Origin: Escherichia coli
GTDB lineage: Bacteria; Pseudomonadota; Gammaproteobacteria; Enterobacterales; Enterobacteriaceae
NCBI RefSeq assembly: GCF_013315695.1
Contig: NZ_CP054356.1
Strand: one strand, 5' to 3'
DNA length: 64,000 nucleotides
A program made the translations under genes and the position numbers. Below are positions 957 to 27,460 of the stretch, one piece after another (within the stretch, counting starts at the first letter, position 1; each line of letters opens with the position of its first letter). A model generated the notes under the pieces. The model was not told the DNA's origin. It did not search any database and saw only the letters and a program-made list of their open reading frames with translations.

Positions 957-1520
957 TCATCCCCCTACAACCACTCCCATTCGTTTAAGTATTTTTAAAC
1001 CTGCTTCCTGTGGTATCTTTATAGATAAGATCCTGTTTATCTCAGGATTTATATCGAGACCTTCTGTCATTGAAAAATCACAGTGAGACAAATCAGAATG
1101 TCTGAACTCTGTATTATTAAACTCCGAACCAGTAAAATCAGATTTACGAAGGTCTGTTTCCTCAAATAAACAATCACGGAAGCGACAGGATAAAAAAATA
1201 GATTTCTGTAACCGTAAACTAATAAAATCAACAAATCTCAAATCACAATTTACAAGAGAAAAAGTACAGGGAAACATAATGTCTGCTGCATTTACTCCTT
1301 GTAATAAACAATCTTTGAATTCACAGTCAATAAGTTTAAAAAAATTAAGTTTTAAATTCTTTATTGAGCAGTTTACGAAGCGACATTTTTCGAACTCACA
1401 ATCGCGAAAGTTAAAGTTGTCAAGCTGTATTCGTTCAAATATACAATTGTAATAATTTACACCTGATAATTCACTTTCACTGAGGTGTCGTTTTGTGATT
1501 CTTTTTTCTATTATATCCAT
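957..1520 (-). CDS. mcbG: Microcin B17 immunity protein McbG (pentapeptide-repeat protein)
   Basis: 187 aa, runs of pentapeptide repeats (..CEFEKCRFVNCSIKNLKLNFFKLIDCEFKDC..); last gene of mcbABCDEFG order. Confidence 0.9.
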   Translation of the reverse strand: MDIIEKRITKRHLSESELSGVNYYNCIFERIQLDNFNFRDCEFEKCRFVNCSIKNLKLNFFKLIDCEFKDCLLQGVNAADIMFPCTFSLVNCDLRFVDFISLRLQKSIFLSCRFRDCLFEETDLRKSDFTGSEFNNTEFRHSDLSHCDFSMTEGLDINPEINRILSIKIPQEAGLKILKRMGVVVGG

Positions 1521-1523
1521 GTG

Positions 1524-2255
1524 TCAGTCTCCTGTTCCCATAACTTCTTTAATAAATGCCTTTTCTGGAGTTGTTTCATTATTGGATTGAATAAAATCAC
1601 TCATATCAGAATAACGATTTATACTATTTTTTGAAAGCATATAGAAGGGGATTTTATCTCTTGTTAATTCATCAAAAATATGAGTTGAGAAAAATACCGT
1701 TTTCCCGTCAGCGGTGATCTTATTTATCAGTTCCCATAACATCATTCTGTACTGAATATCAATGCCTACAGTTGGTTCATCCAGTAAAAATAAACGGGCA
1801 TTTTTGCAAAGCGTTAGCATCAAAGATATGATAAGCCAACGCTTCTCTCCATAACTTACCGTGTAAGTCCTTTTACGTCTTATTTTATCATAGCGAATGA
1901 AAAAATTATCATTCCATTTATGATTAAGCTCTGTCCATGCCTGTTTTTTAGTTAACTTATTGAAGCAGCAAATCAAATCAAGAACCTCCTCATTCCTTAG
2001 TGTACCTGAAAGATTTATGACTTGAGGTAGACTTACTAATTCTCCACCAGAGAAATTTCGCTTGAGGGTCCCTTCATAATTACTGACTCCGCCCCTGATA
2101 AGGTTAAAAAGAGTGGTCTTCCCGGCTCCATTTTCTCCAAGCAGACCTATCAACTCTCCCTGCTCAATCTTAAGCGACAGATTATTGAAAACAGGGGGTA
2201 AATTTACTTTATATGAAAAGCTCAGAGAGTTGATTTCTAAAAGAGGTATGGTCAT
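1524..2255 (-). CDS. mcbF: Microcin B17 export/immunity ABC transporter ATP-binding protein McbF
   Basis: Walker A GENGAGKTT, ABC signature-like SGGE, Walker B LFLLDEP; position in operon. Confidence 0.9.
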   Translation of the reverse strand: MTIPLLEINSLSFSYKVNLPPVFNNLSLKIEQGELIGLLGENGAGKTTLFNLIRGGVSNYEGTLKRNFSGGELVSLPQVINLSGTLRNEEVLDLICCFNKLTKKQAWTELNHKWNDNFFIRYDKIRRKRTYTVSYGEKRWLIISLMLTLCKNARLFLLDEPTVGIDIQYRMMLWELINKITADGKTVFFSTHIFDELTRDKIPFYMLSKNSINRYSDMSDFIQSNNETTPEKAFIKEVMGTGD

Positions 2256-2977
2256 TGAGAACTCCAGACTGGCTCAGTTTTGAAGGTTAGTGCTGAAATA
2301 ATACTTATGATTAACATTATACTATAGAAAAATATCGTCATCAGAGACAACTCCTGGTCTGACTGGAGTATTGTAGAATAGATGGCGATAGGATTAACCT
2401 GATTTATCCAGTAAACGATCCCCTCATTATATTTTAATGATACAATTCCTGATACCATACAGACAGTTATTAATACAGAATAGATAGTGCTGGCTGTTTG
2501 GAATGTGACTCTGAACGATGCCATGAAAGTGAGTGAAACCATCATAAATGCATTTATGTATATCGATTTTAAAATAATCATTACTATTTGATAATCTGGA
2601 CTTGCCTGGAATCCTGTTAGTACGACTAAAATGAAAAAAAACACATACAAAATAGACATGATAAGTGAGGCTATTAATTGAGAACGAATAAATAATAGTC
2701 GACCATCCATATTATGCACGAAGGTAGCAATAAAACCACTTTCTCTTCTTCCGACCAGATACAGACAGTAATTAAACAGAACAACAGAAAAAGAAATGTA
2801 GCCTACAAACCATGATATTTGTTTTCCGAGCCATGCTGTATCACCATAATGAAGTTCAATTTCATTGAAATGAAGGAAAAAGAACAACACTGTAGGTGAC
2901 ATAATTGTCCATATTAAGCTGAAAGGGGTTCTGATTTGTTCCATCAGAAAAATTATCGCCATTTTTAATGTAACCAT
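2252..2977 (-). CDS. mcbE: Microcin B17 export/immunity ABC transporter permease McbE
   Basis: 241 aa highly hydrophobic multi-TM protein, translationally coupled to mcbF. Confidence 0.85.
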   Translation of the reverse strand: MVTLKMAIIFLMEQIRTPFSLIWTIMSPTVLFFFLHFNEIELHYGDTAWLGKQISWFVGYISFSVVLFNYCLYLVGRRESGFIATFVHNMDGRLLFIRSQLIASLIMSILYVFFFILVVLTGFQASPDYQIVMIILKSIYINAFMMVSLTFMASFRVTFQTASTIYSVLITVCMVSGIVSLKYNEGIVYWINQVNPIAIYSTILQSDQELSLMTIFFYSIMLIISIISALTFKTEPVWSSQ

Positions 2978-2986
2978 TTGTTATCC

Positions 2987-4177
2987 TTATGGGAATGGTA
3001 CCATCTTTGATTCTCTGACTTTAATACCGTCCCCGGTATGGTAAATTTTATTATTAATGTTTATTGCACCTGAGTTATTCATATGAAGGAAAAAATCAGG
3101 GCTTACTATTTTTGTGTACCAGACAAGGCTGTTACTTACTCTTTCCCTGGCATAGTAAACAAAAATATTATCAGAAATTTGTTGAAGATAGTTTAATAAA
3201 TTTGTGTCTGACGTAATATTTTCCTCAAGCGTTAACTTGACATCATCAGACAGTAGTACCGTATTTTCACACAAATCCGTAAACGACTCGTACTTGTTGC
3301 ATGACATAAAGTGACGCTGGTAACTATCAATAATGTCATCATCAGTATAACCGCCAATAAGAAAGTTGTGCAGGCATATATACGATTGCCACAATTCCAC
3401 TACGGATTTACAAAGTGCTTTTTTCAGACTATTAGCATAGGATAATCCGGTACTGTATTTTATTCGACTGATTTTGTTTTTTGTGCCATACAGGGTTAGT
3501 ACTGCGTGTCCAGGAGCTCCGGGCAGGGTGATATCGAAAATCCTGATATCTCCTTCTGACCTGAGAGCCAGTAAAATCTCATCTATATGATTTATGCCTG
3601 TTACTATTTCACTGGATATTTCAGTATTGGCTTTTCCCTGTAACCAGTAAAGAAGGAGGGACTGTCTCTCCATAAATTCACACAAGGAACCTTCTATGGC
3701 ATCGTTCAAACTACCATGAAAGCTACATCCGCATGTATCTCTGTCAGGATAAAATTTCAGATCATCTGCAGCGGTTATATTGTCGAGTGCAATTATGACT
3801 GCAGGTATTTCTTGTTGTTCAAGGCTAAACAGATTAAAGGCTCTGACCGTTTTAAATTTATGGGTTATGATTTCATCGCGGGTCAGTGATGAGATCTGAA
3901 AAAATGCTTCGGTAAAAGCCTTTGCAGCAGATGGAGGCATCATCTCATATAATGTTTTCTGACCACCGGTGACTATCTCATTAAAAAAATGACGGCGTTC
4001 AAAATATTCACCTATTGCCCCCTGAATTGACTTCAGAGTTTCACCGGCCGCGCTGGCTGGTGTAATACGCTCATAGTCCCATATCTGAGAAAACGTTGGC
4101 ATATTTCTGTTCAGTTTTGGACTCATGGCCATTGTGGCCGGCCATGCGGACATAAGGTTACTGTAGACATTTATCAT
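2987..4177 (-). CDS. mcbD: Microcin B17 synthetase subunit McbD (YcaO-type cyclodehydratase)
   Basis: 396 aa, operon position between mcbC and mcbE; size matches McbD. Confidence 0.85.
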   Translation of the reverse strand: MINVYSNLMSAWPATMAMSPKLNRNMPTFSQIWDYERITPASAAGETLKSIQGAIGEYFERRHFFNEIVTGGQKTLYEMMPPSAAKAFTEAFFQISSLTRDEIITHKFKTVRAFNLFSLEQQEIPAVIIALDNITAADDLKFYPDRDTCGCSFHGSLNDAIEGSLCEFMERQSLLLYWLQGKANTEISSEIVTGINHIDEILLALRSEGDIRIFDITLPGAPGHAVLTLYGTKNKISRIKYSTGLSYANSLKKALCKSVVELWQSYICLHNFLIGGYTDDDIIDSYQRHFMSCNKYESFTDLCENTVLLSDDVKLTLEENITSDTNLLNYLQQISDNIFVYYARERVSNSLVWYTKIVSPDFFLHMNNSGAININNKIYHTGDGIKVRESKMVPFP

Positions 4178-4976
4178 CGTTTACATCTCCAAAAAACTGA
4201 ACGATCAGTGGCGCTACAGTCCTCTGATCCAGATTCATTGTTTTTGCTACGTATGAATCGGTATATCCCGCCCATACCCGGTTTTTCAGTCCTATTTGAT
4301 CTGCAACCAATACTGCGTTCTGATACATCGAACCTGTTTCCATTAAGGCCATCCGGTATCCTCTGTAGCGATATTTGAACAAAGCTTTTTCAAAAATAAT
4401 GCAATAGACGAGAGCAAAATGGGGTTTACCAAGACGTTCCGAATCCCCACCGGACAGGCTTCGGTAGAGTGACTGAGTATTACATGTAGCAACAGGTTCC
4501 AGTGCCTGACTTAGCGGCAGGTAGTGATAAACATTAGTTCCTGCCTGCCAGTTTTCTGTATTTTCAGATAATCTGCATAAAAAAACTTCAATCGGGTACA
4601 ATGCCCCCCCAGAAGGATAAGGTCTTCTTACAGAGCCAGGATCAGGTGAGCTGAATGCATTGACTAATAACTTTTCAATAGTACGAATGGAAAGTTTATT
4701 TTTGTCGCAAAAGTTTATTCCTGATGGGAGCCTTTCACGACTAAAATTATGTGATGAGGATATGTTTATTACGGAGCTGAAACCTGGCCTGAAGAGAACT
4801 TCTTTATTTTCAAATTTCTCCAGATGGGCAAGAGGTACCGCGGACACGAAAGTTCGTTCAGCAAATTCGGGGAGGGAAGCAAAGTTACCTCTGACATGAA
4901 AATCTTTAACAATGGCCAGAACTTCAGGATCTGTGTAATGCGTTACTTCCACTAAAGAGAGTTCGTGTTTTGACAT
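4158..4976 (-). CDS. mcbC: Microcin B17 synthetase subunit McbC (FMN-dependent dehydrogenase)
   Basis: 272 aa, operon position; size matches McbC. Confidence 0.85.
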   Translation of the reverse strand: MSKHELSLVEVTHYTDPEVLAIVKDFHVRGNFASLPEFAERTFVSAVPLAHLEKFENKEVLFRPGFSSVINISSSHNFSRERLPSGINFCDKNKLSIRTIEKLLVNAFSSPDPGSVRRPYPSGGALYPIEVFLCRLSENTENWQAGTNVYHYLPLSQALEPVATCNTQSLYRSLSGGDSERLGKPHFALVYCIIFEKALFKYRYRGYRMALMETGSMYQNAVLVADQIGLKNRVWAGYTDSYVAKTMNLDQRTVAPLIVQFFGDVNDDKCLQ

Positions 4977-4977
4977 G

Positions 4978-5865
4978 TTATCTCTCCAGACAGCTGCAAG
5001 CCTGCCAGTGAATTACCGGCTCTTTACATAAAATACAGGTGATTAAATCAGCGCTAACAGATGACATAAAGTTATCGACATGACTTTTAACCAGTGAAGT
5101 ACCTGTCAACTCCTGAAGTCGCCGTTTTATTAAATGATAGCTGAATCCTCTTTCTGATTCGCCTAAAGCCAATGCTGGTAGTGTCATTTGGTATTTTTTC
5201 AGTAACTGAAGTAAGTTTGCCCAGGACATTTCGTTACGTCTGAAGCTTTTTTCTTCCCTGCTCAGCCATCTCTCTATATGACAAAAATGGCAGGGAGTAC
5301 CAAGATCAGGTGAATATACTCCATCTATCCTGAATGACTCCTTTAGGTAGTAGCTTTGGATGAAGGCAACACCAGGGTTACTTTCAAATTTTGAATAGAT
5401 TCTTTTTACAATGTCTGAATGATAGTTTTCGAGATGTAACCAGATTAGTGTTGAATCGCTCACATTAATATTATTATCTTTTATATCAATGATATGAGAA
5501 ACAAAAACACCATCAGATTTCCATTGTTCCCGGGCATTACTGAAAAGATGTGGAACATCGCTTATTATGACTGAGTTTACCCAGAGAGGTGATGTTTTCG
5601 TTTTATTTATCACGCCTGTGGTAATAAGAAACTCTTTGCCCTTGTCTTTATCAATAAGCGATTCGTCCAGTAGTTTATCAAGGAGGTATTCAGAAATAAT
5701 ACCCTGTTTGGATCGTAGGCTTTCGAGTACTTTTTTCATTCCCTCATGTGTAATGTCTACTGAAGAAATGTAGGTAATAAGCAGGGTCTTTGTATTTCTG
5801 GAAATTATCTCAAACGGCAGAATATTGATCATATCTTTTCCTTTTTTAATATCAGGGAGCACCAT
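4978..5865 (-). CDS. mcbB: Microcin B17 synthetase subunit McbB (zinc-binding scaffold)
   Basis: 295 aa, Cys-rich C-terminus (CHFCH..CILC..C.C), directly downstream of mcbA. Confidence 0.85.
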   Translation of the reverse strand: MVLPDIKKGKDMINILPFEIISRNTKTLLITYISSVDITHEGMKKVLESLRSKQGIISEYLLDKLLDESLIDKDKGKEFLITTGVINKTKTSPLWVNSVIISDVPHLFSNAREQWKSDGVFVSHIIDIKDNNINVSDSTLIWLHLENYHSDIVKRIYSKFESNPGVAFIQSYYLKESFRIDGVYSPDLGTPCHFCHIERWLSREEKSFRRNEMSWANLLQLLKKYQMTLPALALGESERGFSYHLIKRRLQELTGTSLVKSHVDNFMSSVSADLITCILCKEPVIHWQACSCLER

Positions 5866-5891
5866 GCTCCCTGAACGGTTAATTCAACGTA

Positions 5892-6101
5892 TCAGATATG
5901 TGAACCACTTCCGCCGCTGCCACCGTTTCCACCACTACAACCGTTGCTGCAACCACCACAACCGCCACCTTGACCACCGCAGCTACCGCCGCCGCCGCCG
6001 CCGCCACCACCACCAATGCCAACACCTAATGGAGACTGGCGTGATAATTTAAGAGCATCAACGGACAAAACTACACCAAATTCACTCGCTTTTAATTCCA
6101 T
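5892..6101 (-). CDS. mcbA: Microcin B17 precursor peptide McbA
   Basis: 69 aa MELKASEFGVVLSVDALKLSRQSPLGVGIGGGGGGGGGGSCGGQGGGCGGCSNGCSGGNGGSGGSGSHI; matches recalled McbA with leader plus Gly/Ser/Cys core. Confidence 0.97.
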   Translation of the reverse strand: MELKASEFGVVLSVDALKLSRQSPLGVGIGGGGGGGGGGSCGGQGGGCGGCSNGCSGGNGGSGGSGSHI

Positions 6102-6320
6102 AAGGACTCCTTTTTTAAGGGAAATTAATGCTTATGACATCTGAATAGTATGTTGGCCAACACTAGTTACTTGCCGTCATTAACTATATTTTGCAATGAT
6201 AATTTGAACTAAATTTGTACGCCTGTTAAATATTTAATAATAATATCAGTTGGTTATGTTTATGCTGTTATTGTTTTTTTACAAAAATTAATATTGTGTT
6301 TACATTTTGCTTTCAGTTGC
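6102..6320 (-). promoter_or_regulatory. mcbA upstream promoter region (AT-rich; expected site of the OmpR-dependent stationary-phase Pmcb promoter)
   Basis: AT-rich 200 bp directly 5' of mcbA on the minus strand; exact -35/-10 not assigned. Confidence 0.4.
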
Positions 6321-6630
6321 TGTCAGGATGTCACACTACCCCTTTAAGCCCCCACTGGTCTGGCAGGGCCGGGGGTGGGTAAGGTGAAACCTGTCAATCA
6401 GTACCGGCTTACGCCGGTATCATATGCAACAACTGAGTGCCGCCTTCCATATCATATCATTTGCCCGTTTCCCGCCGTGCAGATCCGGTTTCCGGCTGAA
6501 GTGGATCCAGACCTGATTTGTTGCTGAGTATCGGTAAAAGAGCGGCTTATAATCTATTCTGAAACATGGCAAGTGAATCTGGGCTGTATAATTCCGGCAA
6601 GTGTCATCTGTATTTAAAGGTCGTGTGAGT

Positions 6631-7083
6631 ATGAAATTTATGGAATGTGCTGTCCGGGATGTGATTTATGGGACCAATGTCCGTATTGTCAAACCGGTCA
6701 ACATTTATGAATGTGAACTCAGGGACAATGTGTTTGTCGGCCCCTTCGTTGAGATACAGAAAGGCTGTGTCATTGGTAGTGGAAGCCGGATACAGTCGCA
6801 CACGTTTATTTGTGAGAACGTAACACTGGGGGAGAACTGCTTCATTGGTCATAACGTGACGTTCGCCAACGATCTGTTTCGTTCAGGAGCACCAGATCCG
6901 TCACCGGATAACTGGATCAGCATTACCCTGGGGGATTCGGTTACTGTTGGCAGTGGAGCCATTATTCTGTCTCCGTATATATGCAGCGGAGCTGTTATTG
7001 GTGCGGGGGCAGTTGTAGTAAAACCGATTGAGAACAAAGGCATTTATGCAGGAAACCCGGCAAGACTGATCAGAATATTATGA
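6631..7083 (+). CDS. Hexapeptide-repeat (left-handed beta-helix) acyl/acetyltransferase
   Basis: Repeated [LIV]-G-x-x-x-x hexapeptides (IGHNVTF, LGDSVTVGSGAIILS, IGAGAVVV); ORF track starts at alternative GTG 6601, ATG at 6631 more likely. Confidence 0.75.
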   Translation: MKFMECAVRDVIYGTNVRIVKPVNIYECELRDNVFVGPFVEIQKGCVIGSGSRIQSHTFICENVTLGENCFIGHNVTFANDLFRSGAPDPSPDNWISITLGDSVTVGSGAIILSPYICSGAVIGAGAVVVKPIENKGIYAGNPARLIRIL

Positions 7084-7485: not shown

Positions 7486-7839
7486 TTAGTTTATTAACTT
7501 CATCGCATTCTTTTTTGTCTCCTCATCACTTTTTTGCTCCGATTGTGAAGAGGACTGAATGATTGTTGAAGAATTTAAATCGGCCATCTCTTTTGGAAAT
7601 AGCGATCTCAATATATTCACGATATCTGAAAATGTGGTTTCTTTCGTCAGCAGTTCACATAAAAGGAAAGGGGCCCTGGGATCTTGTCTGTATAAGGCCA
7701 GACCTGCCGTCAGTGCAGCCCGGTTAAGGCGGCTGCGTTCCCCTTGCGGGATACTGTCCAGTGTATCACAAACAATTTTATCTGTTTGATTTACATCTGG
7801 ATTTAGCTTAAAGGCAATGGTTCTGCGCTTGTCCATCAT
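7486..7839 (-). CDS. parR: Plasmid partition adaptor ParR (StbB)
   Basis: 117 aa [47 protein letters not shown].. matches recalled R1/R100 ParR. Confidence 0.92.
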   Translation of the reverse strand: MMDKRRTIAFKLNPDVNQTDKIVCDTLDSIPQGERSRLNRAALTAGLALYRQDPRAPFLLCELLTKETTFSDIVNILRSLFPKEMADLNSSTIIQSSSQSEQKSDEETKKNAMKLIN

Positions 7840-8801
7840 TAATTACCTATGAGATACATACCGTTAACTAAATCATATTGAGAGTTATTGGTTTTAAAAA
7901 AACGTTCATCACGAATCTGTGTGTGTTTTTTTACTGCATCGCATATTAATTCTGCGCCACCACCTATAACCATAACATGAGTATAACCAGAAAATTCATT
8001 GAGTGTATTTAATACACGTTGCTCAAGTTTACGAAGTGCTTCATTCATTGCTTCGGTGACTATTGATATTTTATTCTCATCATTAATTCGTTGCTTCAGA
8101 TAGTTATTATCTTTTCTGTGAATAATTATATCGTCAGCAAGATAGCTACTTCCTTTTGTTCTCGCAAGAGAAAGGGCATCTTTTACTGCAGATGTGACCA
8201 GAGATACACCAAGAGATGAGTCTCCGTATATTTTACTGATTCCCGATAATTTCCCCATTACCTGAGAAATATCTAATGTGGTGCCCCCGAGATCTATAAT
8301 TAATAAAGAATCTAACTCATCCAGTTCTTGTAGAACTTCATAACCTGCCGGTATAGATTCAGGCATGACTTTTACATCTTTTATTGTGAATGTATCCCCA
8401 CCATTTAATGTAATTTTTTTCCGGAAGTTTGCTTTCTTACGCTCAATATTTTCCGTATTGGGTTGGTTATTCCTGTCGTAATACTCTGTCAGAGGAAGTG
8501 TGCAAACAATATCCACTTCGCTTACCGGCAGACCACTGGTCAGTAAGGCGTGGTGCACCGCAACGACATTAACGTCGCTGTATTGCCATGCGATATTGGT
8601 TGTGACTACAGCATCCGGGCTGATTGGATCAAATGAATACTGTTCGCCGTTCAGTGTGTAGTTAAAGACCTTTTTATCACCAAAAGAAACTGCCCACTCG
8701 CGTTTGAAGCTGTTCGGGCTAATGTGCTGTTTAATTGTTCCGTCGCTTTCCTGCCACTGTAGTTTGATGTTTGTTGAACCGTCATCAATGAATACCAACA
8801 T
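7839..8801 (-). CDS. parM: Plasmid partition actin-like ATPase ParM (StbA)
   Basis: 320 aa [25 protein letters not shown].. matches recalled R1 ParM. Confidence 0.95.
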
Positions 8802-8809
8802 TTATAAAA

Positions 8810-8975
8810 CTCCTTATGGTGTTTTTTTTGGTGTTTGTTTGGGTGTGTTTTGGGTTTTAAGTGGGTTTATTTGTCAAGTTTACCCCATTTTAACTATCAA
8901 TCAATGATTATTTGTCTTGTTTTGGTGTTTTATTGGGTTTGGAGTGGGTTGTTTTTGGGTTTTGTTTGGCGGATA
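8810..8975. promoter_or_regulatory. parC: parC centromere/promoter region (iterated ~11-bp repeats)
   Basis: Directly upstream of parM: multiple direct repeats of GGGTGTGTTTT / GGGTTTTAAGT / GGTGTTTTATT type flanking an AT-rich core. Confidence 0.7.
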
Positions 8976-8980
8976 ACAAA

Positions 8981-9290
8981 AGATGTCGCCGGGCTCCTCT
9001 TTTTACTGCGCCGGCTGACGCGGCGCGGCAGGAACGCTGCCTGTGGTCAGTGTCCCGCGTCCGGCCGGGCACGGGACGGGCGCTTTTACCGCTCCCGGCT
9101 GGCGTCGGTGACAGTGTACGCCAGCCCGTCGCCCTTTTCTGATGAGCGCCCTTCAAGCCGCTTTCGCGGCATAGCCTTGCCGTCAAAAAGACGACGGCTG
9201 CGGTATTCCACGGTCGGCCTGACCCGTTACCGGGCGCGGTGAACAGCCCACAGGCAGCGGGGAACGGGCGCCACAGGGGCGCCCTCCCGA
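8981..9290 (+). repeat. Leading-region structured repeat, family A copy 1 (Frpo/ssi-like candidate ssDNA promoter)
   Basis: About 310 bp nearly identical to 10288-10598; GC-rich with nested inverted repeats; sits directly upstream of an operon start. Confidence 0.6.
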
Positions 9291-9312
9291 TGCTCCTGTG
9301 AGGATAATTCCC

Positions 9313-10239
9313 ATGCCAAACTGGTGCTCGAATCGTATGTATTTTTCTGGTGAACCGGCACAGATCGCTGAGATTAAACGACTGGCCAGCGGTGCAGTCA
9401 CACCGTTTTATCGCCGCGCCACAAATGAAGGTATTCAGCTGTTTCTGGCCGGAAGTGCCGGACTTCTGCAGACCACTGAAGATGTGCGGTTTGAACCATG
9501 CCCCGGACTGACGGCTGCCGGACGTGGTGTTTTATCGCCGGAGAATATCACGTTCACCCGCTGGCTGAAGCACCTGCAGGACGGTGTACTGCTGGATGAG
9601 CAAAACTGCCTGATGCTGCATGAACTCTGGCTGCAGAGCGGTACTGGACAGCGTCGCTGGGAAGGGTTACCGGATGATGTCAGGGAAACTATCACTGTGC
9701 ATTTCACCGCAAAAAGAGGTGACTGGTGTGACATCTGGGGTAACGAGGATGTATCGGTGTGGTGGAACCGTCTGTGTGACAACGTACTGCCGGAAAAAAC
9801 CATGCCGTTTGACCTGCTGACGGTTTTGCCGACCCGCCTGGATATTGAAGTGAATGGCTTTAACGGCGGTGTTCTGAACGGTGTTCCTTCTGCATATCAC
9901 TGGTATACAGAACGGTATGGCGTGAAGTGGCCTTGTGGGTATGACCTGAATATCAGCAGTCAGGGGGAAAACTTCATTCAGGTAGATTTCGACACGCCGT
10001 GGTGTCAGCCGGAAAGCGACGTTGTTGCAGAATTAAGCCGCCGTTTCGGCTGCACGCTGGAGCACTGGTACGCCGAACAGGGCTGCAATTTCTGTGGCTG
10101 GCAGTTGTATGAGCGCGGAGAGCTTGTTGATGTGCTGTGGGGGGAACTGGAATGGTCTTCCCCGACAGATGACGATGAGCTGCCGGAAGTCACCGGACCT
10201 GCGTGGATAGTCGACAATGTGGCGCATTATGGCGGATGA
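9313..10239 (+). CDS. Hypothetical Trp/Cys-rich leading-region protein (about 308 aa)
   Basis: ORF with SD AGGA upstream of ATG 9313 (track gives alternative GTG 9298); motifs PNWCSNRMYF, WCDIWGNEDVSVWWNRLCDN, GCNFCGWQL; no family recognised with confidence. Confidence 0.6.
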   Translation: MPNWCSNRMYFSGEPAQIAEIKRLASGAVTPFYRRATNEGIQLFLAGSAGLLQTTEDVRFEPCPGLTAAGRGVLSPENITFTRWLKHLQDGVLLDEQNCLMLHELWLQSGTGQRRWEGLPDDVRETITVHFTAKRGDWCDIWGNEDVSVWWNRLCDNVLPEKTMPFDLLTVLPTRLDIEVNGFNGGVLNGVPSAYHWYTERYGVKWPCGYDLNISSQGENFIQVDFDTPWCQPESDVVAELSRRFGCTLEHWYAEQGCNFCGWQLYERGELVDVLWGELEWSSPTDDDELPEVTGPAWIVDNVAHYGG

Positions 10240-10287
10240 AGTATGACGGAGACGGGCGGGCAACCGCCCGTTTCTTTTCCGGTAAAG

Positions 10288-10598
10288 GATGTCGCCGTGC
10301 TCCTCTTTTTACTGCGCCGGCTGACGCGGCGCGGCATAAACGCTGCCTGTGGTCAGTGTCCCGCGTCCGGTGGGCACGGGACGGGCGCTTTTACCGCTCC
10401 CGGCTGGCGTCGGTGACAGTGTACGCCAGCCTGTCGCCCTTTTCTGATGAACGCCCTTCAAGCCGCTTTCGCGGCATAGCCTTGCCGTCAGAAAGACGAC
10501 GGCTGCGGTATTCCACGGTCGGCCTGACCCGTTACCGGACGCGGTGAACAGCCCACAGGCAGCGGGGAACGGGCACCACAGGGGTGCCCTCCCGGTGC
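10288..10598 (+). repeat. Leading-region structured repeat, family A copy 2 (Frpo/ssi-like)
   Basis: Near-identical to 8981-9290; ends just before RBS of methyltransferase gene. Confidence 0.6.
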
Positions 10599-10622
10599 CC
10601 TCTGTAAGAGAAGGAGTTTTGT

Positions 10623-11306
10623 ATGTCCCGTTTTGTCCTCGGTAACTGCATCGATGTTATGGCCCGTATTCCTGATAACGCCATTGATTTCATACTGACT
10701 GACCCGCCGTACCTCGTCGGTTTCCGTGACCGTTCCGGGCGCACCATTGCCGGTGATGTTAATGATGACTGGCTGCAACCTGCCAGCAATGAGATGTACC
10801 GCGTACTCAAAAAAGACGCGCTGATGGTCAGCTTCTACGGCTGGAACCGTGTCGATCGCTTTATGGCCGCCTGGAAACGCGCCGGATTCAGCGTGGCAGG
10901 GCACCTCGTGTTCACCAAAAACTACACATCCAAATCTGCGTATGTCGCGTACCGTCACGAATGCGCTTACATCCTGGCAAAGGGCAGTCCGGCCCGGCCC
11001 CGTAACCCTCTGCCGGATGTGCTGGGCTGGAAATATTCAGGCAATCGTCATCACCCGACGGAAAAGCCCGTTACCAGCCTGCAACCACTGATTGAGAGCT
11101 TCACACATCCGAACGCGATTGTGCTGGACCCGTTTGCAGGCAGCGGCTCAACCTGCGTCGCTGCCCTCCAGTCCGGACGCCGGTATATCGGTATCGAGCT
11201 GCTTGAACAGTATCACCGTGCCGGACAGCAACGACTGGCCGCCGTGCAACGGGCCATGCAGCAGGGGGCCGCGAATGATAACTGGTTTGAACCGGAGGCT
11301 GCGTAA
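10623..11306 (+). CDS. Orphan DNA methyltransferase (N6-adenine/N4-cytosine type, beta-class)
   Basis: Motif IV TDPPY precedes motif I DPFAGSGST; 227 aa; typical leading-region orphan MTase. Confidence 0.85.
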   Translation: MSRFVLGNCIDVMARIPDNAIDFILTDPPYLVGFRDRSGRTIAGDVNDDWLQPASNEMYRVLKKDALMVSFYGWNRVDRFMAAWKRAGFSVAGHLVFTKNYTSKSAYVAYRHECAYILAKGSPARPRNPLPDVLGWKYSGNRHHPTEKPVTSLQPLIESFTHPNAIVLDPFAGSGSTCVAALQSGRRYIGIELLEQYHRAGQQRLAAVQRAMQQGAANDNWFEPEAA

Positions 11307-11528
11307 ATGAACTATGCCGGACACGAAAAACTTCGCGCCGACGTGGCGGAGGTGGCCAACACCATGTGTGACCTTCGGGCCAGGCTGAACGATATGGAGC
11401 ATCGCTGTCGCTTTGATTCCGATGTGCTTGTTGAACGCCTGACACGCCAGACGCTGTATCGCGCCAATCGCCTGTTCATGGAGGCGTATACCGAAATTCT
11501 GGAACTGGATTCCTGCTTCAAAGATTGA
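11307..11528 (+). CDS. Hypothetical small protein (73 aa)
   Basis: ATG overlaps methyltransferase stop (TAAATG); operon context only. Confidence 0.5.
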   Translation: MNYAGHEKLRADVAEVANTMCDLRARLNDMEHRCRFDSDVLVERLTRQTLYRANRLFMEAYTEILELDSCFKD

Positions 11529-11541
11529 GAAGGAGACGAGA

Positions 11542-11976
11542 ATGTACGGAACATGCGAAACGCTATGCCGGGAGCTGGCAGCAAAGTATTCGGGAGACAC
11601 GCCACTGATGCTGGTTATCTGGTCCCCGGAAGAAATTCAGGCCCTCTCTGACGGAATGGATATTGCCCTGACCGATCATGAAATCAGGACTGTCCTGGCG
11701 CGCCTGGAGGACATCCCGGAAGACCAGCGGACTGAATCCGGTATTTCTTCCGGCGTGGCGATGGAGATCATCAATAACGTGAGCGAAAACCGCCAGGTGA
11801 CTGTCCCTGCTGAACTGCTGGCGTCCCTGATTCAGACCGCTGAACAGGCATTGTGGAAACGTGAATGGGCCGCCCGGGATCATGGCCTCGCCGTCCCGGA
11901 ATGCGTCACCCGCCGTCAGGCGGTGGTTAATCAGGTCCGCATCCTGCTGAAAAACAACACACACGAAAACGACTGA
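11542..11976 (+). CDS. Hypothetical leading-region protein, paralog of 13679-14098 (possibly DUF1380-type)
   Basis: Good RBS GAGAAGGAG; shares MY(G/C)T start and R-x-VTVPA-x-LL motif with ORF 13679. Confidence 0.6.
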   Translation: MYGTCETLCRELAAKYSGDTPLMLVIWSPEEIQALSDGMDIALTDHEIRTVLARLEDIPEDQRTESGISSGVAMEIINNVSENRQVTVPAELLASLIQTAEQALWKREWAARDHGLAVPECVTRRQAVVNQVRILLKNNTHEND

Positions 11977-12020
11977 TGTTATCGCCGCCTCCGGGCGGCG
12001 ATACAGGGAGTTCATGAATT

Positions 12021-12791
12021 ATGAATGAAATGCTGAATGCACTGATTTATCGCCACGCCAGCAACCTGTTGCTGGCGCAGGGCTGGCCGGAAGAGACGGA
12101 TGTTGACCAGCGTAACCCGAAGTATCCGGGCTGGATCAGCATTTACGTGCGGCTGGATGCGCCCCGGCTGGCGACGTTACTTATCAAGCGTCACGGCGGC
12201 GTACTGCCGCCGCTCCTGGCCTCTGCCATTCAGAAACTGACCGGAACCGGAGCGGAACTTGTTCTGTCCGGCAGTCAGTGGCAGTCGCTGCCGGTACTTC
12301 CGGCAGACGGAACGCAGGTGTCTTTCCCGTATGCCGGTGAGTGGCTGGCAGAGGACGAAATCAGGGCCGTTCTTGGTGCGGTACGCGATGCAGTATGCAG
12401 TGTCAGTTACCAGGTGGCAGAAGATGCGCGGCGTATCCGTGCGGCGCTGACCACCACCGGTCAGACGTTGCTGACCCGCCAGACGCGCCGCTTTCGCCTG
12501 GTGGTGAAGGAAAGCGATCACCCCTGCTGGCTCGATGAAGACGACGAAAACCTGCCCGTGGTGCTCGATGCCATCCTGAACCGGGGCGCTCGTTTTTCGT
12601 CGGTGGAAATGTATCTGGTCAGTGAGTGTGTGGAGCATATCCTGTCCAGTGGGCTGGCCTGCGATATGCTGCGTATACCGGATGAACCGCCCCGCCGCTG
12701 GTTTGACCGTGGTGTTCTGCGGGAGGTGGTCCGGGAAGCCCGGAACGAAATCCGCAGCATGGCGGATGCCCTGGCAAAAATCCGGAAATGA
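12021..12791 (+). CDS. Hypothetical protein (256 aa)
   Basis: RBS AGGGAG 10 nt upstream; codon usage consistent with neighbours; no family recognised. Confidence 0.55.
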
Positions 12792-12847
12792 TGACGCTGG
12801 CGGGGAAAAATCTCCGCCTTTTCCAGTCGGTCCCCGGAAAGAGCAAA

Positions 12848-13200
12848 AGGATGTCGCCGCAGGCTCCTCTTTACCCGGCCATGTGGGGCATGGCCTTGTG
12901 GGTTTTCAGTTATGTGGCCTCAGCGTCGTGTGCGGGCTGTGCCGTGCCTCCATCGTAGCCGGGCTTCTGCGGGCGGGTTGCAAGGTAAGGTGAACCGCTG
13001 CGGTCACCCGGTCCCTCCTTCCCGTCTGCCGTGATTTTCCGGTCGTTCACCCGCTCAGATTTCGCGGTCTCACCCTTCAACTCCCGTCAGCCGTGCGCGT
13101 CAGGCTGCGGCTTCCCTTGCGCCCTTGCAACCCTGCAGGCCCGGCAAAGATGGAGGCACGGCACCGCCCGGTGTCGCGGAATATGTGAACAACGGAGGAA
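12848..13200 (+). repeat. Divergent family-A-related structured element upstream of klcA
   Basis: Begins with the same AAGGATGTCGCCG..GCTCCTCTTT motif as family A copies, then diverges; GC-rich with inverted repeats. Confidence 0.45.
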
Positions 13201-13206
13201 AACATC

Positions 13207-13632
13207 ATGCAATATGCGAAACCTGTCACTCTGAACGTTGAAGAGTGTGACCGTCTCTCCTTTCTGCCTTACCTGTTTGGCAACGATTTTCTGTATGCCG
13301 AGGCGTATGTGTACGCGCTGGCGCAAAAAATGATGCCGGAATATCAGGGAGGCTTCTGGCATTTCATCCGCCTGCCGGACGGTGGCGGTTACATGATGCC
13401 GGATGGCGACCGTTTTCATCTGGTCAACGGTGAAAACTGGTTTGACCGCACTGTGAGTGCTGATGCCGCAGGTATCATCCTGACTTCCCTTGTGATTAAC
13501 CGCCAGTTGTGGCTGTACCACGACAGCGGGGATGCGGGACTGACACACCTTTACCGGATGCGCGATGCGCAGTTGTGGAGCCACATCGAATTTCACCCCG
13601 AATGCAATGCGATTTACGCGGCACTTGACTGA
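13207..13632 (+). CDS. klcA: Antirestriction protein KlcA/ArdB family
   Basis: 141 aa; size, leading-region position and motifs ([21 protein letters not shown]) consistent with recalled KlcA/ArdB. Confidence 0.65.
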
Positions 13633-13678
13633 TTAACGGACGGGGCGGCGATGCCGCCCCTGTAAAGGAGACGAGAAC

Positions 13679-14098
13679 ATGTACTGTACTGTTAAAGAAA
13701 TTATCCGCGAAGTGCTGGATACAGACGTGCCGGACAGTGAATGCGTTTTTGCCGTGGTGCTGACCCGTGGGGATGTGCGTCACATAGCCCAGGACTGGAG
13801 TCTGACAGACGATGAGCTGGAAACCGTCATGCAGCGGCTGGACGATGCCTTTGAGCATGGTGCTGATGTCAGCATTGTTCACGACGTTGTTCGTGAACTG
13901 ATGGAGGAAAAGCGCGTAAACCGTCTTGTAACAGTCCCTGCGGTGCTGCTGGAAAAAGTGATGGTGATGGCTGGTAGTGAAATTTATCGCCTCCATGCTG
14001 TAGGGAGCGAGAACGGGGGCGACGGTGACGCATTTGTCAGGGAAGAACGTGAGATTATGCGGGTGATGCGTCAGGCGCTGGACGGGGAGAATGGGTAA
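13679..14098 (+). CDS. Hypothetical leading-region protein, paralog of 11542-11976
   Basis: RBS AAAGGAGA; shared motifs with ORF 11542 (VTVPAVLLEKV). Confidence 0.6.
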   Translation: MYCTVKEIIREVLDTDVPDSECVFAVVLTRGDVRHIAQDWSLTDDELETVMQRLDDAFEHGADVSIVHDVVRELMEEKRVNRLVTVPAVLLEKVMVMAGSEIYRLHAVGSENGGDGDAFVREEREIMRVMRQALDGENG

Positions 14099-14289
14099 TG
14101 AATATCAGCAAGGAAACCCGCGAAATTCTGCGTAATTACAGGGCCGTGATTAATGCGCGGCGTCGTGAAATGGGGCAGAAACCGCTCACCACCGCGCAGA
14201 TTGTTGATGAAATATGTGATTTTGTGGTGAATCAGCAGGCTGTTTTCCTCGGTGGTCACTACATCCTTCAGGGCAGCAGGCACAGGTGA
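14098..14289 (+). CDS. Hypothetical small protein (63 aa)
   Basis: ATG overlaps previous stop (TAATG); operon context. Confidence 0.45.
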   Translation: MNISKETREILRNYRAVINARRREMGQKPLTTAQIVDEICDFVVNQQAVFLGGHYILQGSRHR

Positions 14290-14490
14290 TACAGGGCAGG
14301 CGGTGGAGGCCGCCTGTCAGCCCGCGCGAAAACCCCTGGCAGGCTGGCGCCTGCCGGAAGGGAAGCGGGCCACGCTGGCGCGTCGCCCGTTACCCTTCCC
14401 GTTTGTGATGTGTCCGGAATGTTTTTTCCTGATGTTATGTTTCTGTGGTTACTGTTCTTCTTCTTCCTCTTCTTTCCGTTCCTCTCCTGT

Positions 14491-15025
14491 TTATGCCTTT
14501 TCCGGGCGTCCCCCTGGCGGGGCGGGCTGTCGTGAACGGAGCCAGCGGAGCTGTCTCCGCCCTGGCGGGCTTCCATCCCTGACGCAAAACCCCGGGTTTG
14601 CAGCGACCGGAACGGTCGCGCCACCCCTGTCGCGCCGTGGCCTGCGCTCCCGGCATCCCGGCAAAAAGACGCCGGGATGTAAGGAGCAACGCCGTTTCGC
14701 AAACCGCGCTTCACGTCGTTGCAGCGGGTCCCTGCTCATTGCCTGCCGGGTGCCACACACCCGTATGAGTCCCTGTCGCCGGGGGCATAGACAGCCACAA
14801 CCTGCCGCACTGACTGTCCAGGGTAAATGAACAGCCCACAAAATTTTTTACCTAAAACCCGGTAAAAAATTTTGCGTTCTGCCCAGGACAGGTGCGTCAG
14901 GCCGTGGCAGTGATGCCCCTTGCGGCGAAGGTTCTCAAACGGGTGAAGTTCATACCACAGGGAATACAGCAGCAGGTTCCCGCGAAACGTCAAAACCGCG
15001 GCTCCCGAAACTCAACGGGTGATGT
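14491..15025 (+). repeat. Leading-region structured repeat, family B copy 1 (Frpo/ssi-like candidate ssDNA promoter)
   Basis: About 530 bp repeated at 17774-18300 and 23191-23740; contains perfect 14-bp inverted repeat CAAAATTTTTTACC/GGTAAAAAATTTTG (about 14839-14874). Confidence 0.6.
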
Positions 15026-15256
15026 TCTTTAAAAATCAGGATTTATTTCAGGCTCCGGCAATACGCATTTATGTGTTCTGTCAGTCATCCGGCTGGCAGG
15101 TAATGAAAACGCAGGAACAGAAGGAGGAAAACACCGGAAAGCGTCAGATGCAGATATGAAAAAAAGCAGGTCAGGGACCTGCTTAATCCACGCCGTAAGA
15201 ATTGTGCGACCAATTTTGACGGCATTGTTAACCAATTTGTCATAAGGAATCCATTT

Positions 15257-15487
15257 ATGACTGTAAGCATTGTTTCACCTTCCGCAGCGGCTGTAAAGCC
15301 CCGCCGTCATCCCCGTTTCAGACGCGAAGACATCCCCGCGCCGGAACTTGACCCCGTGCTGAAAGCCTTCGGGCGACACATTGCCCGGAGTTTTCGCCGG
15401 GGGCGTGGTGTACACATCCCCGCCATGAAAAACACGGCCTTCGGGCAGGTGCTCCGCACACTCGAACTGAAACGCGCTTTTAACTGA
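15257..15487 (+). CDS. Hypothetical small basic protein (76 aa, Arg-rich)
   Basis: RBS AAGGAA; first gene after family B copy 1; RRHPRFRRED..RSFRRGRG. Confidence 0.5.
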   Translation: MTVSIVSPSAAAVKPRRHPRFRREDIPAPELDPVLKAFGRHIARSFRRGRGVHIPAMKNTAFGQVLRTLELKRAFN

Positions 15488-17722: not shown

Positions 17723-17773
17723 TTCTTCTTTTTTCTGCTGCTCTGATTACTGTCTGTTTTGTTGTTCTCCTGC

Positions 17774-18300
17774 TTATGCCTTTTCCGGGCGTCCCCCTGG
17801 CGGGGCGGGCTGTCGTGAACGGAGCCAGCGGAGCTGTCTCCGCCCTGGCGGGCTTCCATCCCTGACGCAAAAACCCGGGTTTGCAGCGACCGGAACGGTC
17901 GCGCCACCCTTGTCGCGCCGTGGCCTGCGCTCCCGGCATCCCGGCAAAAGACGCCGGGATGTAAGGAGCAACGCTGTTTCGCAAACCGCGCTTCACGTCG
18001 TTGCGGCGGGTCCCTGCCCGTTGTTCTGTCCGGTGCCATTCACCTGTTTAAGCCCCTGTCGCCGGGGGCTGATACAGCCACAACCTGCCGCACTGACTGT
18101 CCAGGGTAAATGAACAGCCCACAAAATTTTTTACCCAAAACCCGGTAAAAAATTTTGCGTTCTGCCCAGGACAGGTGCGTCAGGCCGTGGCAGTGATGCC
18201 CCATGCGGCGAAGGTTCTCAAACAGGTGATGGTGAATACCGGAGGGAACAAAAGGCAGGTCCCCGCAAAACGTCAAAACCGCGGCTCCCGAAACTCAACA
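17774..18300 (+). repeat. Leading-region structured repeat, family B copy 2 (Frpo/ssi-like), upstream of ssb
   Basis: Near-identical to 14491-15025 and 23191-23740. Confidence 0.6.
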
Positions 18301-18340
18301 GATGATGGGGGCTGAAAACATCAACAGAAGGAGACACATC

Positions 18341-22403: not shown

Positions 22404-22559
22404 TGCGGCAACAATCGCACAGATTACCCGTAAACAGCCTGAATGAGCGGGTTATTTTCAGGAAAAGTGAGTGTGGTCAGCGTGCAGGTATATGGGCTAT
22501 GATGTGCCCGGCGCTTGAGGCTTTCTGCCTCATGACGTGAAGGTGGTTTGTTACCGTGT

Positions 22560-22640
22560 TGTGTGGCAGAAAGAAGATAGCCCCGTAGTAAGTTAATTTT
22601 CATTAACCACCACGAGGCATCCCTATGTCTAGTCCACATC
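22560..22640 (-). ncRNA. Putative sok/flmB-type antisense RNA (approximate)
   Basis: Inferred from hok/mok architecture: antisense to mok leader; boundaries not determined. Confidence 0.3.
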
Positions 22641-22837
22641 AGGATAGCCTCTTACCGCGCTTTGCGCAAGGAGAAGAAGGCCATGAAACTACCACGAAGT
22701 TCCCTTGTCTGGTGTGTGTTGATCGTGTGTCTCACACTGTTGATATTCACTTATCTGACACGAAAATCGCTGTGCGAGATTCGTTACAGAGACGGACACA
22801 GGGAGGTGGCGGCTTTCATGGCTTACGAATCCGGTAA
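22625..22837 (+). CDS. mok: mok-like modulator-of-killing reading frame overlapping hok
   Basis: 70-aa ORF overlapping the hok frame, as in hok/sok and flm loci. Confidence 0.6.
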
Positions 22838-22872: not shown

Positions 22873-23190
22873 CAGGGCTGATGCTGGTCTGACTGCACTG
22901 AAGCGCCTTTATAAAGGGGCTGCTGGTTCGCCGGTGGCCCCTTTCTCCTTGCTGGCATTGTACGGGCATGAACAACCAGACTGCCAGGAAGGCCGTTTCC
23001 CTCCGGGAACGGGGATGAACGTGCGCCTGCGGCGCCCGTTCTTTTCCCCCGCCTTCTCTGTTTATGACTTACCAGAAATCACATCACCTTCCCTTTGATT
23101 ATTCTCTTTTTCCTCCTGCTCTGACTCTGATTACTGCTCTGACTCTGATTACTGCTGCCCTGATTATTGTCTGTTTTGTTGTTCTCCTGC

Positions 23191-23740
23191 TTATGCCTTT
23201 TCCGGGCGTCCCCCTGGCGGGGCGGGCTGTCGTGAACGGAGCCAGCGAAGCTGTCTCCGCCCTGGCGGGCTTCCATCCCTGACGCAAAACCCCCGGCTTG
23301 CAGCGACTGTTCCGGTCGCGCCGCCTCTGTCGCGCCGTGGCCTGCGCTCCTGGCATCCCGGCAAAAGGCCGCCGGGATGTAAGGCGCAACGCCGTTTCGC
23401 AAACCGCGCTTCACGTCGTTGCGGCGGGTCCCTGCCCGTTGTTGTGTCCGGTGCCATTCACCTGTTTAAGCCCTGTCGCCGGGGCTGATAGTTGATACAA
23501 CCTGCCGCACTGACTGTCCGGTAAAATGAACAGCCCACAAAATTTTTTACCCAAAACCCGGTAAAAATTTTGCGTTCTGCTCCAGACAGGTGCGTCAGGC
23601 CGTGGCAGGTGATGCCCCTGCGGCGAAGGTTCTCAAACAGGTGATGGTGAATACCGGAGGAACAAAAGGCAGGTCCCCGCAAAACGTCAAAACCGCGGCT
23701 CCCGAAACTCAACAGATGATGGGGGCTGAAAACATCAGAT
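23191..23740 (+). repeat. Leading-region structured repeat, family B copy 3 (Frpo/ssi-like)
   Basis: Near-identical to copies 1 and 2; 3' end shares the ssb leader sequence up to about 10 nt before the RBS. Confidence 0.6.
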
Positions 23741-25789: not shown

Positions 25790-26195
25790 TTCCACCTCTG
25801 GTGACTTTATCCGTAAATAATTTAACCTACTCCACAAAAAGGCTCAACAGGTTGGTGGTTCTCACCACCAAAAGCACCACACCCCACGCAAAAACAATTT
25901 TTTGCTGATTTTTCTTTATAAATAGAGTGTTATGAAAAATTAGTTTCTCTTACTCTCTTTATGATATTTAAAAAAGCGGTGTCGGCGCGGCTACAACAAC
26001 GCGCCGACACCGCTTTGTAGGGGTGGTACTGACTATTTTTATAAAAAACATCATTTTATATTAGGGGCGCTGCTAGCGGCGCGGTGTGTTTTTTTATAGG
26101 ATACCGCTAGGGGCGCTGCTAGCGGTGCGTCCCTGTTTGTATTATGAATTTTAGTGTTCCGAAATTAACTTTATTTTATGTTCAAAAAAGGTAAT
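25790..26195 (-). other. oriT: Origin of transfer oriT (F/R100-type); nic predicted on minus strand near 25878/25879
   Basis: Plus strand carries reverse complement of the F nic region (..CCAAAAGCACC|ACACCCCACGC..), adjacent inverted repeat GGTGGTTCTCACCACC, A/T-rich tracts, hairpin GCGGTGTCGGCGCG..CGCGCCGACACCGC, repeated AGGGGCGCTGCTAGCGG motifs (TraM-site candidates). Confidence 0.8.
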
Positions 26196-26584: not shown

Positions 26585-26692
26585 AAGAAATTTGACTTCG
26601 TTCAAATATCAGAGTTTTTATGATTTAAAAAGGTGACAGTACGAAAGATAATTAGTATATTAATTACGTGGTTAATGCCACGTTAAAATTTG

Positions 26693-26775
26693 AATTTGAA
26701 AATCGCCGATGCAGGGAGTTCTCTCCTCCCCGCATCGACTGTCCATAGAATCCTTTGTGAGGAGGTTCCTATGTA
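26693..26775 (-). ncRNA. finP: FinP antisense RNA (approximate)
   Basis: Antisense to traJ leader/RBS; two stem-loops (e.g. CGATGCAGGGAG..CTCCCCGCATCG) and minus-strand U-tail (plus GAATTTGAAAATC). Confidence 0.6.
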
Positions 26776-27460
26776 TCCGATGGATCGTATTCAACAAAAA
26801 CATGCTCGTCAAATAGATCTGCTGGAAAATCTGACGGCAGTTATTCAGGATTATCCAAATCCAGCCTGTATCAGGGACGAAACTGGAAAATTTATTTTTT
26901 GCAATACGCTGTTTCATGAGTCATTTCTTACACAAGATCAAAGTGCTGAAAAATGGCTTCTGTCGCAGAGAGATTTTTATGAATTGATCTCTGTCACAGA
27001 GATGGAAGCATACAGGAATGAGCATACGCATCTTAATCTTGTAGAGGATGTTTTTATTCAGAACAGATTCTGGACAATATCTGTCCAGTCATTTCTTAAT
27101 GGACACAGAAATATTATTCTGTGGCAATTTTATGATGCTGCTCATGTTCGTCATAAAGACAGTTATAATCAAAAAACGATTGTCAGTGATGATATCAGAA
27201 ATATAATCAGAAGAATGAGTGATGATTCTTCTGTATCATCATATGTAAATGATGTATTTTACTTATATAGCACCGGAATCAGTCATAATGCTATAGCAAG
27301 AATATTAAACATATCCATCTCCACATCAAAGAAACACGCATCTCTGATATGCGACTACTTCTCTGTTTCTAATAAAGATGAGTTAATCATCTTACTCTAC
27401 AATAAAAAGTTTATTCATTATTTATACGAGAAGGCTATGTGTATCATAAATATGCGTTAA
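26771..27460 (+). CDS. traJ: Transfer operon activator TraJ
   Basis: ATG with RBS GAGGAGG; MYPMDRIQQKHARQIDLLENL..; track ORF extends upstream to 26690. Confidence 0.85.
   Translation: MYPMDRIQQKHARQIDLLENLTAVIQDYPNPACIRDETGKFIFCNTLFHESFLTQDQSAEKWLLSQRDFYELISVTEMEAYRNEHTHLNLVEDVFIQNRFWTISVQSFLNGHRNIILWQFYDAAHVRHKDSYNQKTIVSDDIRNIIRRMSDDSSVSSYVNDVFYLYSTGISHNAIARILNISISTSKKHASLICDYFSVSNKDELIILLYNKKFIHYLYEKAMCIINMR

Follow-up and report, generated by a model that had tools for sequence, protein, structure and literature searches.

A DUF1281 gene at the oriT-distal border of an IncFII leading region, flanked by copies of the hairpin found 5' of M.EcoGIX

We analysed a gene for a DUF1281 protein, named YfaB, YubB or YccB on plasmids, in a 64,000-nucleotide stretch of Escherichia coli DNA (NZ_CP054356.1; hereafter the window), where it lies between the parMRC locus and a DNA methylase gene. 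The coding sequence occupies 9313..10239 on the + strand and, as originally predicted, runs from an ATG at 9313 to a stop at 10239 and specifies 308 amino acids (aa), with an Api92-like fold. A Shine-Dalgarno sequence, GAGGA, was read at 9300..9304 (+), 8 nt 5' of the ATG, and homology with the alleles of the plasmids F and pESBL-EA11 (pESBL) starts at 9297, 16 nt 5' of the ATG. All 308 codons are intact in 10/10 plasmid alleles, and the pairwise ratio of nonsynonymous to synonymous substitution (dN/dS) is 0.25 across 8 alleles, compared with 0.12 for the adjoining methylase; these intact alleles and this ratio identify the open reading frame (ORF) as a real gene. Divergent from it lie parM (7839-8801, −) and parR (7486-7839, −), both recognized as ORFs and from the annotation of the 99.8%-identical plasmid NZ_CP024888, so that its description as the first gene after parMR and parC holds. 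The putative parC region, between the start of parM and the first hairpin (8802..8977, no strand assigned), was placed by its position and its T/G-rich repeated sequence, following the layout of the R1 parMRC locus. On the other side, the methylase gene (10623..11306, +) encodes a 227-aa protein identical at 219/227 positions (96%, BLASTP) to M.EcoGIX of pESBL (extract 4783-5463).

The gene had been assigned its own upstream element, called family A, and we indeed found a 316-nt repeat directly upstream of it, with a second copy downstream. These direct repeats (8978-9293 and 10284-10598) flank the DUF1281 gene and are 95-97% identical. Copy 1 (8978..9296, on the −, transferred strand) is a GC-rich, long imperfect hairpin, identified by the repeat and by its single-stranded DNA (ssDNA) fold of -100.5 kcal/mol (z -5.5), while copy 2 (10284..10605, −), located 5' of the methylase gene, was recognized from its match to pESBL and from its own fold (z -6.3). 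Window positions 10266-10622 are 99.2% identical to pESBL-EA11 extract 4425-4781, the intergenic region 5' of M.EcoGIX; copy 1 is 95% identical to that region and is closer to the hairpin allele of the F plasmid than to copy 2 of the window. Alignment of copy 1 with the F and pESBL copies revealed one compensatory stem change (GGGCACC..GGTGCCC versus GGGCGCC..GGCGCCC), which supports a small stem within the element. Wen et al. (NAR 2025, PMC12672017) showed that the hairpin preceding M.EcoGIX acts as a single-strand promoter, which they placed in a new 'class 3'; its transcription start was mapped by 5' rapid amplification of cDNA ends (5'RACE), and its operon was induced within 15 min of transfer. 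Family A is most probably this class 3 single-strand promoter, with DUF1281 possessing a copy of its own, and copy 1 would by its resemblance be active as a promoter. A consensus scan of 8700-10700 on both strands found no promoter hexamers, inspection by eye found no convincing -35/-10 pair, and no duplex promoter was detected for DUF1281. RefSeq annotates an Arg-rich 'hypothetical protein' within each hairpin copy, WP_002430945 (8949-9242, +) and WP_001310011 (10236-10547, +); both look like spurious ORFs through GC-rich structured DNA.

The window is collinear at 99.8% with NZ_CP024888, a pMccB17-like IncFII plasmid. The F-type oriT nic sequence, GTGGGGTGT^GGTGCTTT, has a single exact match at 25871..25887 on the − strand, where 0.01 would be expected by chance, and the traJ 5' untranslated region and FinP lie at 26666-26777. 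The exact match on the minus strand makes this the transferred strand and therefore the template for the + strand leading genes. DUF1281 is a + strand gene 15.6-16.6 kb from nic, adjoining parMRC and situated between nic and the maintenance region. Consequently, where the original prediction saw the first leading-region gene, DUF1281 is the last to enter the recipient, ~16.6 kb from nic, and marks the oriT-distal border of the 'anti-defence island' in the leading region of this pMccB17-like IncFII plasmid. This agrees with the median gene position of 22 from oriT reported by Samuel et al. (Nature 2024, PMC11541004), in whose analysis DUF1281 is family 27 among the 100 largest leading-region families, with 1949 members, significant enrichment in the leading region and T-strand-templated orientation. 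The family is labelled there 'Uncharacterized; DUF1281', with the names YubB, YccB, YfdA and YfaB, and all 1949 members are scored 'NA' against the anti-CRISPR and anti-restriction sequence and structure sets.

The protein itself, previously thought to be of unknown family, was placed by profile search in Pfam DUF1281 and DUF1281_C, which follow one another in that order and are both significant: PF06924 (DUF1281) matches residues 30-206 over model positions 1-177 of 177 (E 1.6e-46), and PF18406 (DUF1281_C, 'ferredoxin-like domain in Api92-like protein') matches residues 209-282 (E 1.3e-14). Residues 3-274 align with Api92 of Yersinia pseudotuberculosis, for which there is a crystal structure, 2IJR (E 6e-48; 1.3e-98 for the family profile). 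The fold is that of this solved member, and the two-domain architecture was modelled at high confidence. It is nearly certain that the window protein adopts the two-domain Api92 fold, a ferredoxin-like sheet interrupted by a helical domain of ~170 residues, and equally that the first strand of the sheet is the extreme N-terminus (MPNWCxN); we are also highly confident that it is a member of the plasmid DUF1281 family (YfaB/YubB/YccB). Matches in the AlphaFold database (AFDB) were solely to other uncharacterised DUF1281 or 'YubB ferredoxin-like' proteins. PHROG 37043, whose function is not known, matches the protein over its full length, NCBIfam gave no match, and the PADLOC defence-system models returned 0 families at E ≤ 0.1. 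At the DNA level the gene is 99.9% identical to one present in many sequenced plasmids, whose records label it 'DUF1281 domain-containing protein' (yfaB in one record). The original observation is partly confirmed and its interpretation partly supported, with its novelty overstated, as the family, the structure and the leading-region enrichment are already on record. New here are the recognition that the element before DUF1281 duplicates the hairpin 5' of M.EcoGIX, three alternative arrangements of the locus with their frequencies, the repeated occurrence of the gene beside ssDNA methylases and ArdC in elements that are unrelated to one another, and a set of conserved N- and C-terminal features.

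Proteins of E. coli contain ~1.5% Trp and ~1.2% Cys on average. Relative to these background frequencies, the 16 Trp (5.2%) and 10 Cys (3.2%) of the window protein represent an excess (binomial P 3e-5 and 4e-3, respectively). All five Trp/Cys clusters quoted in the original prediction occur in the translation (WCSN at 4-7, WCDIWGNEDVSVWWNRLCDN at 138-157, WPCGYD at 206-211, WCQPESD at 230-236 and GCNFCGWQL at 257-265), but they are mostly lineage-specific, with few of the Cys recurring in a set of 38 diverse homologs that extends down to 25% identity. In this set, M1, C5, N7, G47, G50, L94, W138, P173, G182, F226, D227, G262, G269 and P296 are invariant or nearly so: N7 and G269 are present in 38/38, and C5, D227 and F226 in 35/38. 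H251 (34/38), C261 (32/38) and E255 (31/38) follow. The family-wide positions, namely the N-terminal NWCxN, the NGFNG loop, FDTxW, HxYxE, CG, G269 and P296, are all found in the window protein. Among the weaker cysteines, C247 recurs in 25/38, C99 in 21/38 and C258 in 17/38, while C63, C139, C155, C208 and C231 are not recurrent, with C208 and C231 varying even between close IncF alleles. Family members contain between 5 and 16 Trp, the window allele being the extreme, and between 4 and 13 Cys.

Acidity is a family-wide property (mean net charge -20; isoelectric point (pI) 4.1-5.1 in nearly all members) that the window protein shares (net charge -23, pI 4.5), and the protein is soluble, with a highest Kyte-Doolittle 19-residue mean of 0.68. 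Constraint is strongest over the N-terminal 28 residues (dN/dS 0.09), and no segment approaches a dN/dS of 1. At the other end, 25/38 homologs terminate in exactly -GG, preceded by an acidic run and a conserved GP-x-YI-x2-N-x2-H-[YF] tail; in the window protein this tail comprises residues 281-308, with DDDELPE as the acidic run, and is modelled with high confidence. A ubiquitin-like role for the C-terminal Gly-Gly was considered and rejected, since the tail is ordered in the model (predicted local distance difference test score ~88) and the fold is not a beta-grasp. The Api92 subgroup differs from the window protein in lacking both C261 and the GP-x-YI-x2-N-x2-H-[YF]-GG tail, and in having ArdC, not an M.EcoGIX-type methylase, as its neighbour. 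The internal duplication suggested for the protein was likewise rejected: Smith-Waterman comparison of its halves with shuffled sequences gave z ≤ 2.4, and hhalign of the halves and sub-domains of the family alignment gave probabilities of 0.2-6.3%.

We next consider how the gene is arranged and distributed among plasmids. DUF1281 is present in 3100/5426 complete E. coli genomes, where 4075/4125 copies are located on plasmids, and PLSDB has it in at least 5000 plasmids, the majority of them conjugative IncF and IncI; phage genomes are nearly free of it, tblastn yielding one unannotated 1.9-kb 'phage' record and one weak match in a jumbo phage. The arrangements were counted among the matches listed for PLSDB queries, which were made junction-specific because family A copy 1 can align to copy 2. 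The order seen in the window, family A followed by DUF1281, accounted for 360 records, while 4244 records carry another hairpin before DUF1281 and ~1356 have parC, family A and the methylase with no DUF1281 (NZ_CP148436 was checked as an example). In F and pESBL, family A occurs once, before the methylase only, and DUF1281 stands behind the other, unrelated hairpin of ~285 nt (pESBL-EA11 extract 3187-3471; F extract 5568-5855). This hairpin is GC-rich, highly conserved and strongly folded (z -5.8), ends at the ribosome-binding site and is absent from the window. It has no sequence similarity to any window element or to anything elsewhere in pESBL, and could represent a further, undescribed class of single-strand promoter. 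The gene-less form could arise from the window form by homologous recombination between the 316-nt direct repeats, which would give exactly the order parC, hairpin, methylase. In classical F (NC_002483, extract 5856-6778), DUF1281 carries a 1-nt frameshift at about codon 162 and no coding sequence is listed; the same 923-nt form is found in the recent plasmid sequences CP054450, NZ_CP091027 and NZ_CP115352. The gene-less plasmids and the F frameshift together indicate that DUF1281 is accessory.

A search with a 12-sequence alignment returned 17 loci, and the neighbours of distant relatives were compared in these and other contexts. In five loci from Citrobacter, Pantoea and Erwinia, an M.EcoGIX-type methylase lies 0.5-1.7 kb downstream of the gene, and in a sixth locus, from Pantoea brenneri, the distance is 8.6 kb; relative to the window, DUF1281 is 42-49% and the methylase 70-84% identical. 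Other N6 methylases are found near DUF1281 in two metagenomic contexts. ArdC, confirmed by Pfam (ArdcN, E 4.7e-38; MPTase-PolyVal, E 6.8e-40), precedes the gene in one Api92-type context and in chromosomal elements of Proteus mirabilis and Providencia stuartii, in which a PFGI-1-class/MobH relaxase gene follows 0.6 kb after DUF1281, with an integrase gene beyond. In P. mirabilis ATCC 29906 (extract 8564-14327), and likewise in P. stuartii, the row reads ArdC, a 99-aa ORF, DUF1281, a 128-aa ORF, the relaxase and a tyrosine recombinase. From this order, the leading end of this family of MobH integrative and conjugative elements (ICEs) appears to carry a gene set of the type found in the leading regions of IncF and IncI plasmids. 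In a Shewanella element, MazEF and an STY4534-family ICE replication protein lie upstream and type IV pilus genes downstream; Cedecea and Pluralibacter plasmids have DUF1281 among ParMR, PsiA, hok and DUF932 genes, and a marine contig has it among ssb, recT and yqaJ. The bordering maintenance module varies between plasmids, being parMRC, sopABC or dinI-impCAB. DUF1281 is linked to genes whose products handle or protect the single strand as it enters, and no one maintenance module accompanies it throughout.

Several known leading-region systems bear comparison. PsiB, the leading-region inhibitor of RecA, is dispensable in laboratory matings and acts by binding one host protein; it provides a precedent for the mode of action proposed below, although DUF1281 is unrelated to it in sequence and fold. 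DUF1281 resembles ArdA and Ocr in being strongly acidic, located in the leading region, T-strand-templated and expected early, an analogy of function only. Whereas ArdA is an elongated, DNA-shaped dimer, the DUF1281 model is a compact two-domain alpha/beta protein. It has no match to the Pfam ArdA family (PF07275), no structural match to ArdA or Ocr, and no hit in the published anti-restriction screens (PMC11541004). Accordingly, the earlier failure to match the protein to ArdA, KlcA or other known anti-restriction folds was confirmed, with no such match in Pfam, NCBIfam, the PDB or the AFDB. KlcA/ArdB, encoded in the same island ~3 kb downstream in the window by mapped annotation, and controlled in pESBL and F by a single-strand promoter of a different class, is similar to DUF1281 in neither sequence nor fold. 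The closest parallel in organization is the M.EcoGIX operon, of whose hairpin the DUF1281 upstream element is a 95%-identical copy and whose 96%-identical methylase is encoded by the next gene; by Pfam search, however, DUF1281 has no methyltransferase motifs.

On the basis of these observations, we propose that DUF1281 is an early, optional establishment or anti-defence protein that blocks a factor of the recipient, a reading to which we give a probability of roughly 0.45. In this plasmid lineage, the single-stranded hairpin promoter would drive transient synthesis of the protein in the new transconjugant as soon as entry of the leading region is complete. There the protein would bind and block a factor of the recipient that targets the incoming DNA, most likely a nuclease of the restriction type, and so aid establishment in some recipients as an optional, host-dependent anti-defence factor. 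Blocking would be stoichiometric, in the manner of ArdA or PsiB, not catalytic. Taken separately, early expression with an establishment or anti-defence role is the part we lean towards, by a little. Stoichiometric inhibition, which we put forward tentatively, appears the likeliest mode of action because the protein is acidic, lacks any recognisable motif for catalysis or for a cofactor, evolves more rapidly than the adjoining enzyme, is frequently lost and travels with anti-restriction functions.

Several points weigh against this proposal. Searches of the literature on DUF1281, Api92, yubB, yfdA, yccB and yfaB yielded no functional study or experiment, and the functional argument draws on gene neighbourhood and general properties. 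The assignment of family A to class 3 follows from its being the intergenic hairpin immediately 5' of M.EcoGIX; most plasmids, by the counts above, have the other hairpin before DUF1281, not the class 3 element; and the induced operons of pESBL and F (six and four) are named, in PMC12672017, for M.EcoGIX and not for DUF1281. Early induction of DUF1281 is accordingly a prediction that may not apply outside this plasmid lineage. Overall, dN/dS stays below 1, and at segment resolution nothing points to an arms race; the frequent loss of the gene implies that any benefit is conditional. Finally, the conserved polar residues C5, N7, D227, H251, E255 and C261 could form an active site, which would favour an enzyme.

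In such an enzyme, these six residues would form a thiol/imidazole active site in the cleft that separates the sheet from the helical domain. Its substrate, to be modified or cleaved during establishment, would be a host factor, a nucleotide signal or the protein partners of the incoming DNA. The conservation of this set (from 31/38 for E255 to 38/38 for N7), the strong constraint on the N-terminal 28 residues and the confidently modelled two-domain architecture are all in its favour, and the leading-region setting fits it equally well. We nevertheless regard an enzyme as unlikely.

Alternatively, DUF1281 may be a passenger at the leading-region border, serving a vegetative function such as plasmid competition, fertility inhibition, stability or host interaction, with the hairpin copy a by-product of recombination. 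The gene does lie at the border of the island, beside whichever maintenance module occurs; it is missing from the ~1356 gene-less plasmids among the matches listed and is frameshifted in F, which keeps its transfer proficiency; the characterised promoter class is absent before it in most plasmids; and it enters ~16.6 kb after nic. Nevertheless, it is linked to the methylase, ArdC and relaxase genes in IncF, IncI and other plasmids and in MobH-type ICEs, its orientation is consistently T-strand-templated and its leading-region enrichment significant, each of the two upstream elements folds into a strongly structured hairpin (z -5.5 and -5.8) that extends to the ribosome-binding site, and a duplex promoter was not detected. 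These features make a passenger role doubtful. Least probable is that the Cys clusters set the function of DUF1281, as a Trp/Cys-rich protein that binds metal (zinc or iron-sulfur) or senses redox state. In its favour, Cys and Trp exceed compositional expectation, family members contain 4-13 Cys, and the sheet includes a CxxC (C258-x2-C261) close to H251 and C247. Against it, 5/10 Cys are not conserved (two varying among near-identical alleles), C258 and C247 recur too patchily for any four-ligand set to be kept across the family, the candidate ligands are reduced to C5 in Api92, whose structure is solved, the window allele is the extreme of a Trp range of 5-16, and no metalloprotein fold was matched; a metal cluster as the defining feature was therefore down-weighted.

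Returning to DUF1281 as an early establishment protein, the adjacent methylase hints at a possible target. M.EcoGIX is a single-strand-specific N6-methyladenine methyltransferase, and DNA that it has methylated becomes sensitive to Mrr, a modification-dependent nuclease (PMC7736820). Given this sensitization, and on the basis of gene adjacency, DUF1281 could be an inhibitor of Type IV (Mrr/McrBC-like) restriction, protecting a plasmid that has been promiscuously methylated. The plasmids that keep the methylase with no DUF1281 argue against a strict dependence between the two. A broader version, in which DUF1281 would be the founder of a new, conjugation-specific anti-defence or establishment class working with strand-shielding proteins (the M.EcoGIX-type methylase and ArdC), strikes us as improbable.

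The IncF and IncI backbones that carry DUF1281 spread extended-spectrum beta-lactamase and carbapenemase genes. If DUF1281 does aid entry into restriction-proficient hosts, it would extend the set of anti-defence functions encoded in leading regions and might serve as a target in efforts to curb resistance plasmids. Taken by itself, this window adds little to what is on record.

Further features of the window were noted. By collinearity with NZ_CP024888, a microcin B17 operon occupies ~957-6101 (−), with genes for a TOMM (thiazole/oxazole-modified microcin) precursor, McbB, a SagB-type dehydrogenase, YcaO, McbE, an ABC ATPase and a pentapeptide-repeat immunity protein; this operon identifies the window as coming from a pMccB17-like IncFII plasmid. 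A ~600-nt repeat is present in three copies (14443-15040, 17726-18323 and 23143-23737), which are 84-94% identical to the two F regions that match the class 1 single-strand promoters Frpo2 (upstream of ssb) and Frpo1; the window plasmid thus has three Frpo-like copies, compared with two in F. Rfam identified sok antitoxin RNAs at 22509-22685 and 62862-63017 (+), corresponding to two hok/sok loci, and a match to the 'AS-pc01' antisense RNA within the leading region at 15161-15262 (−), which overlaps the end of one Frpo-like repeat region.
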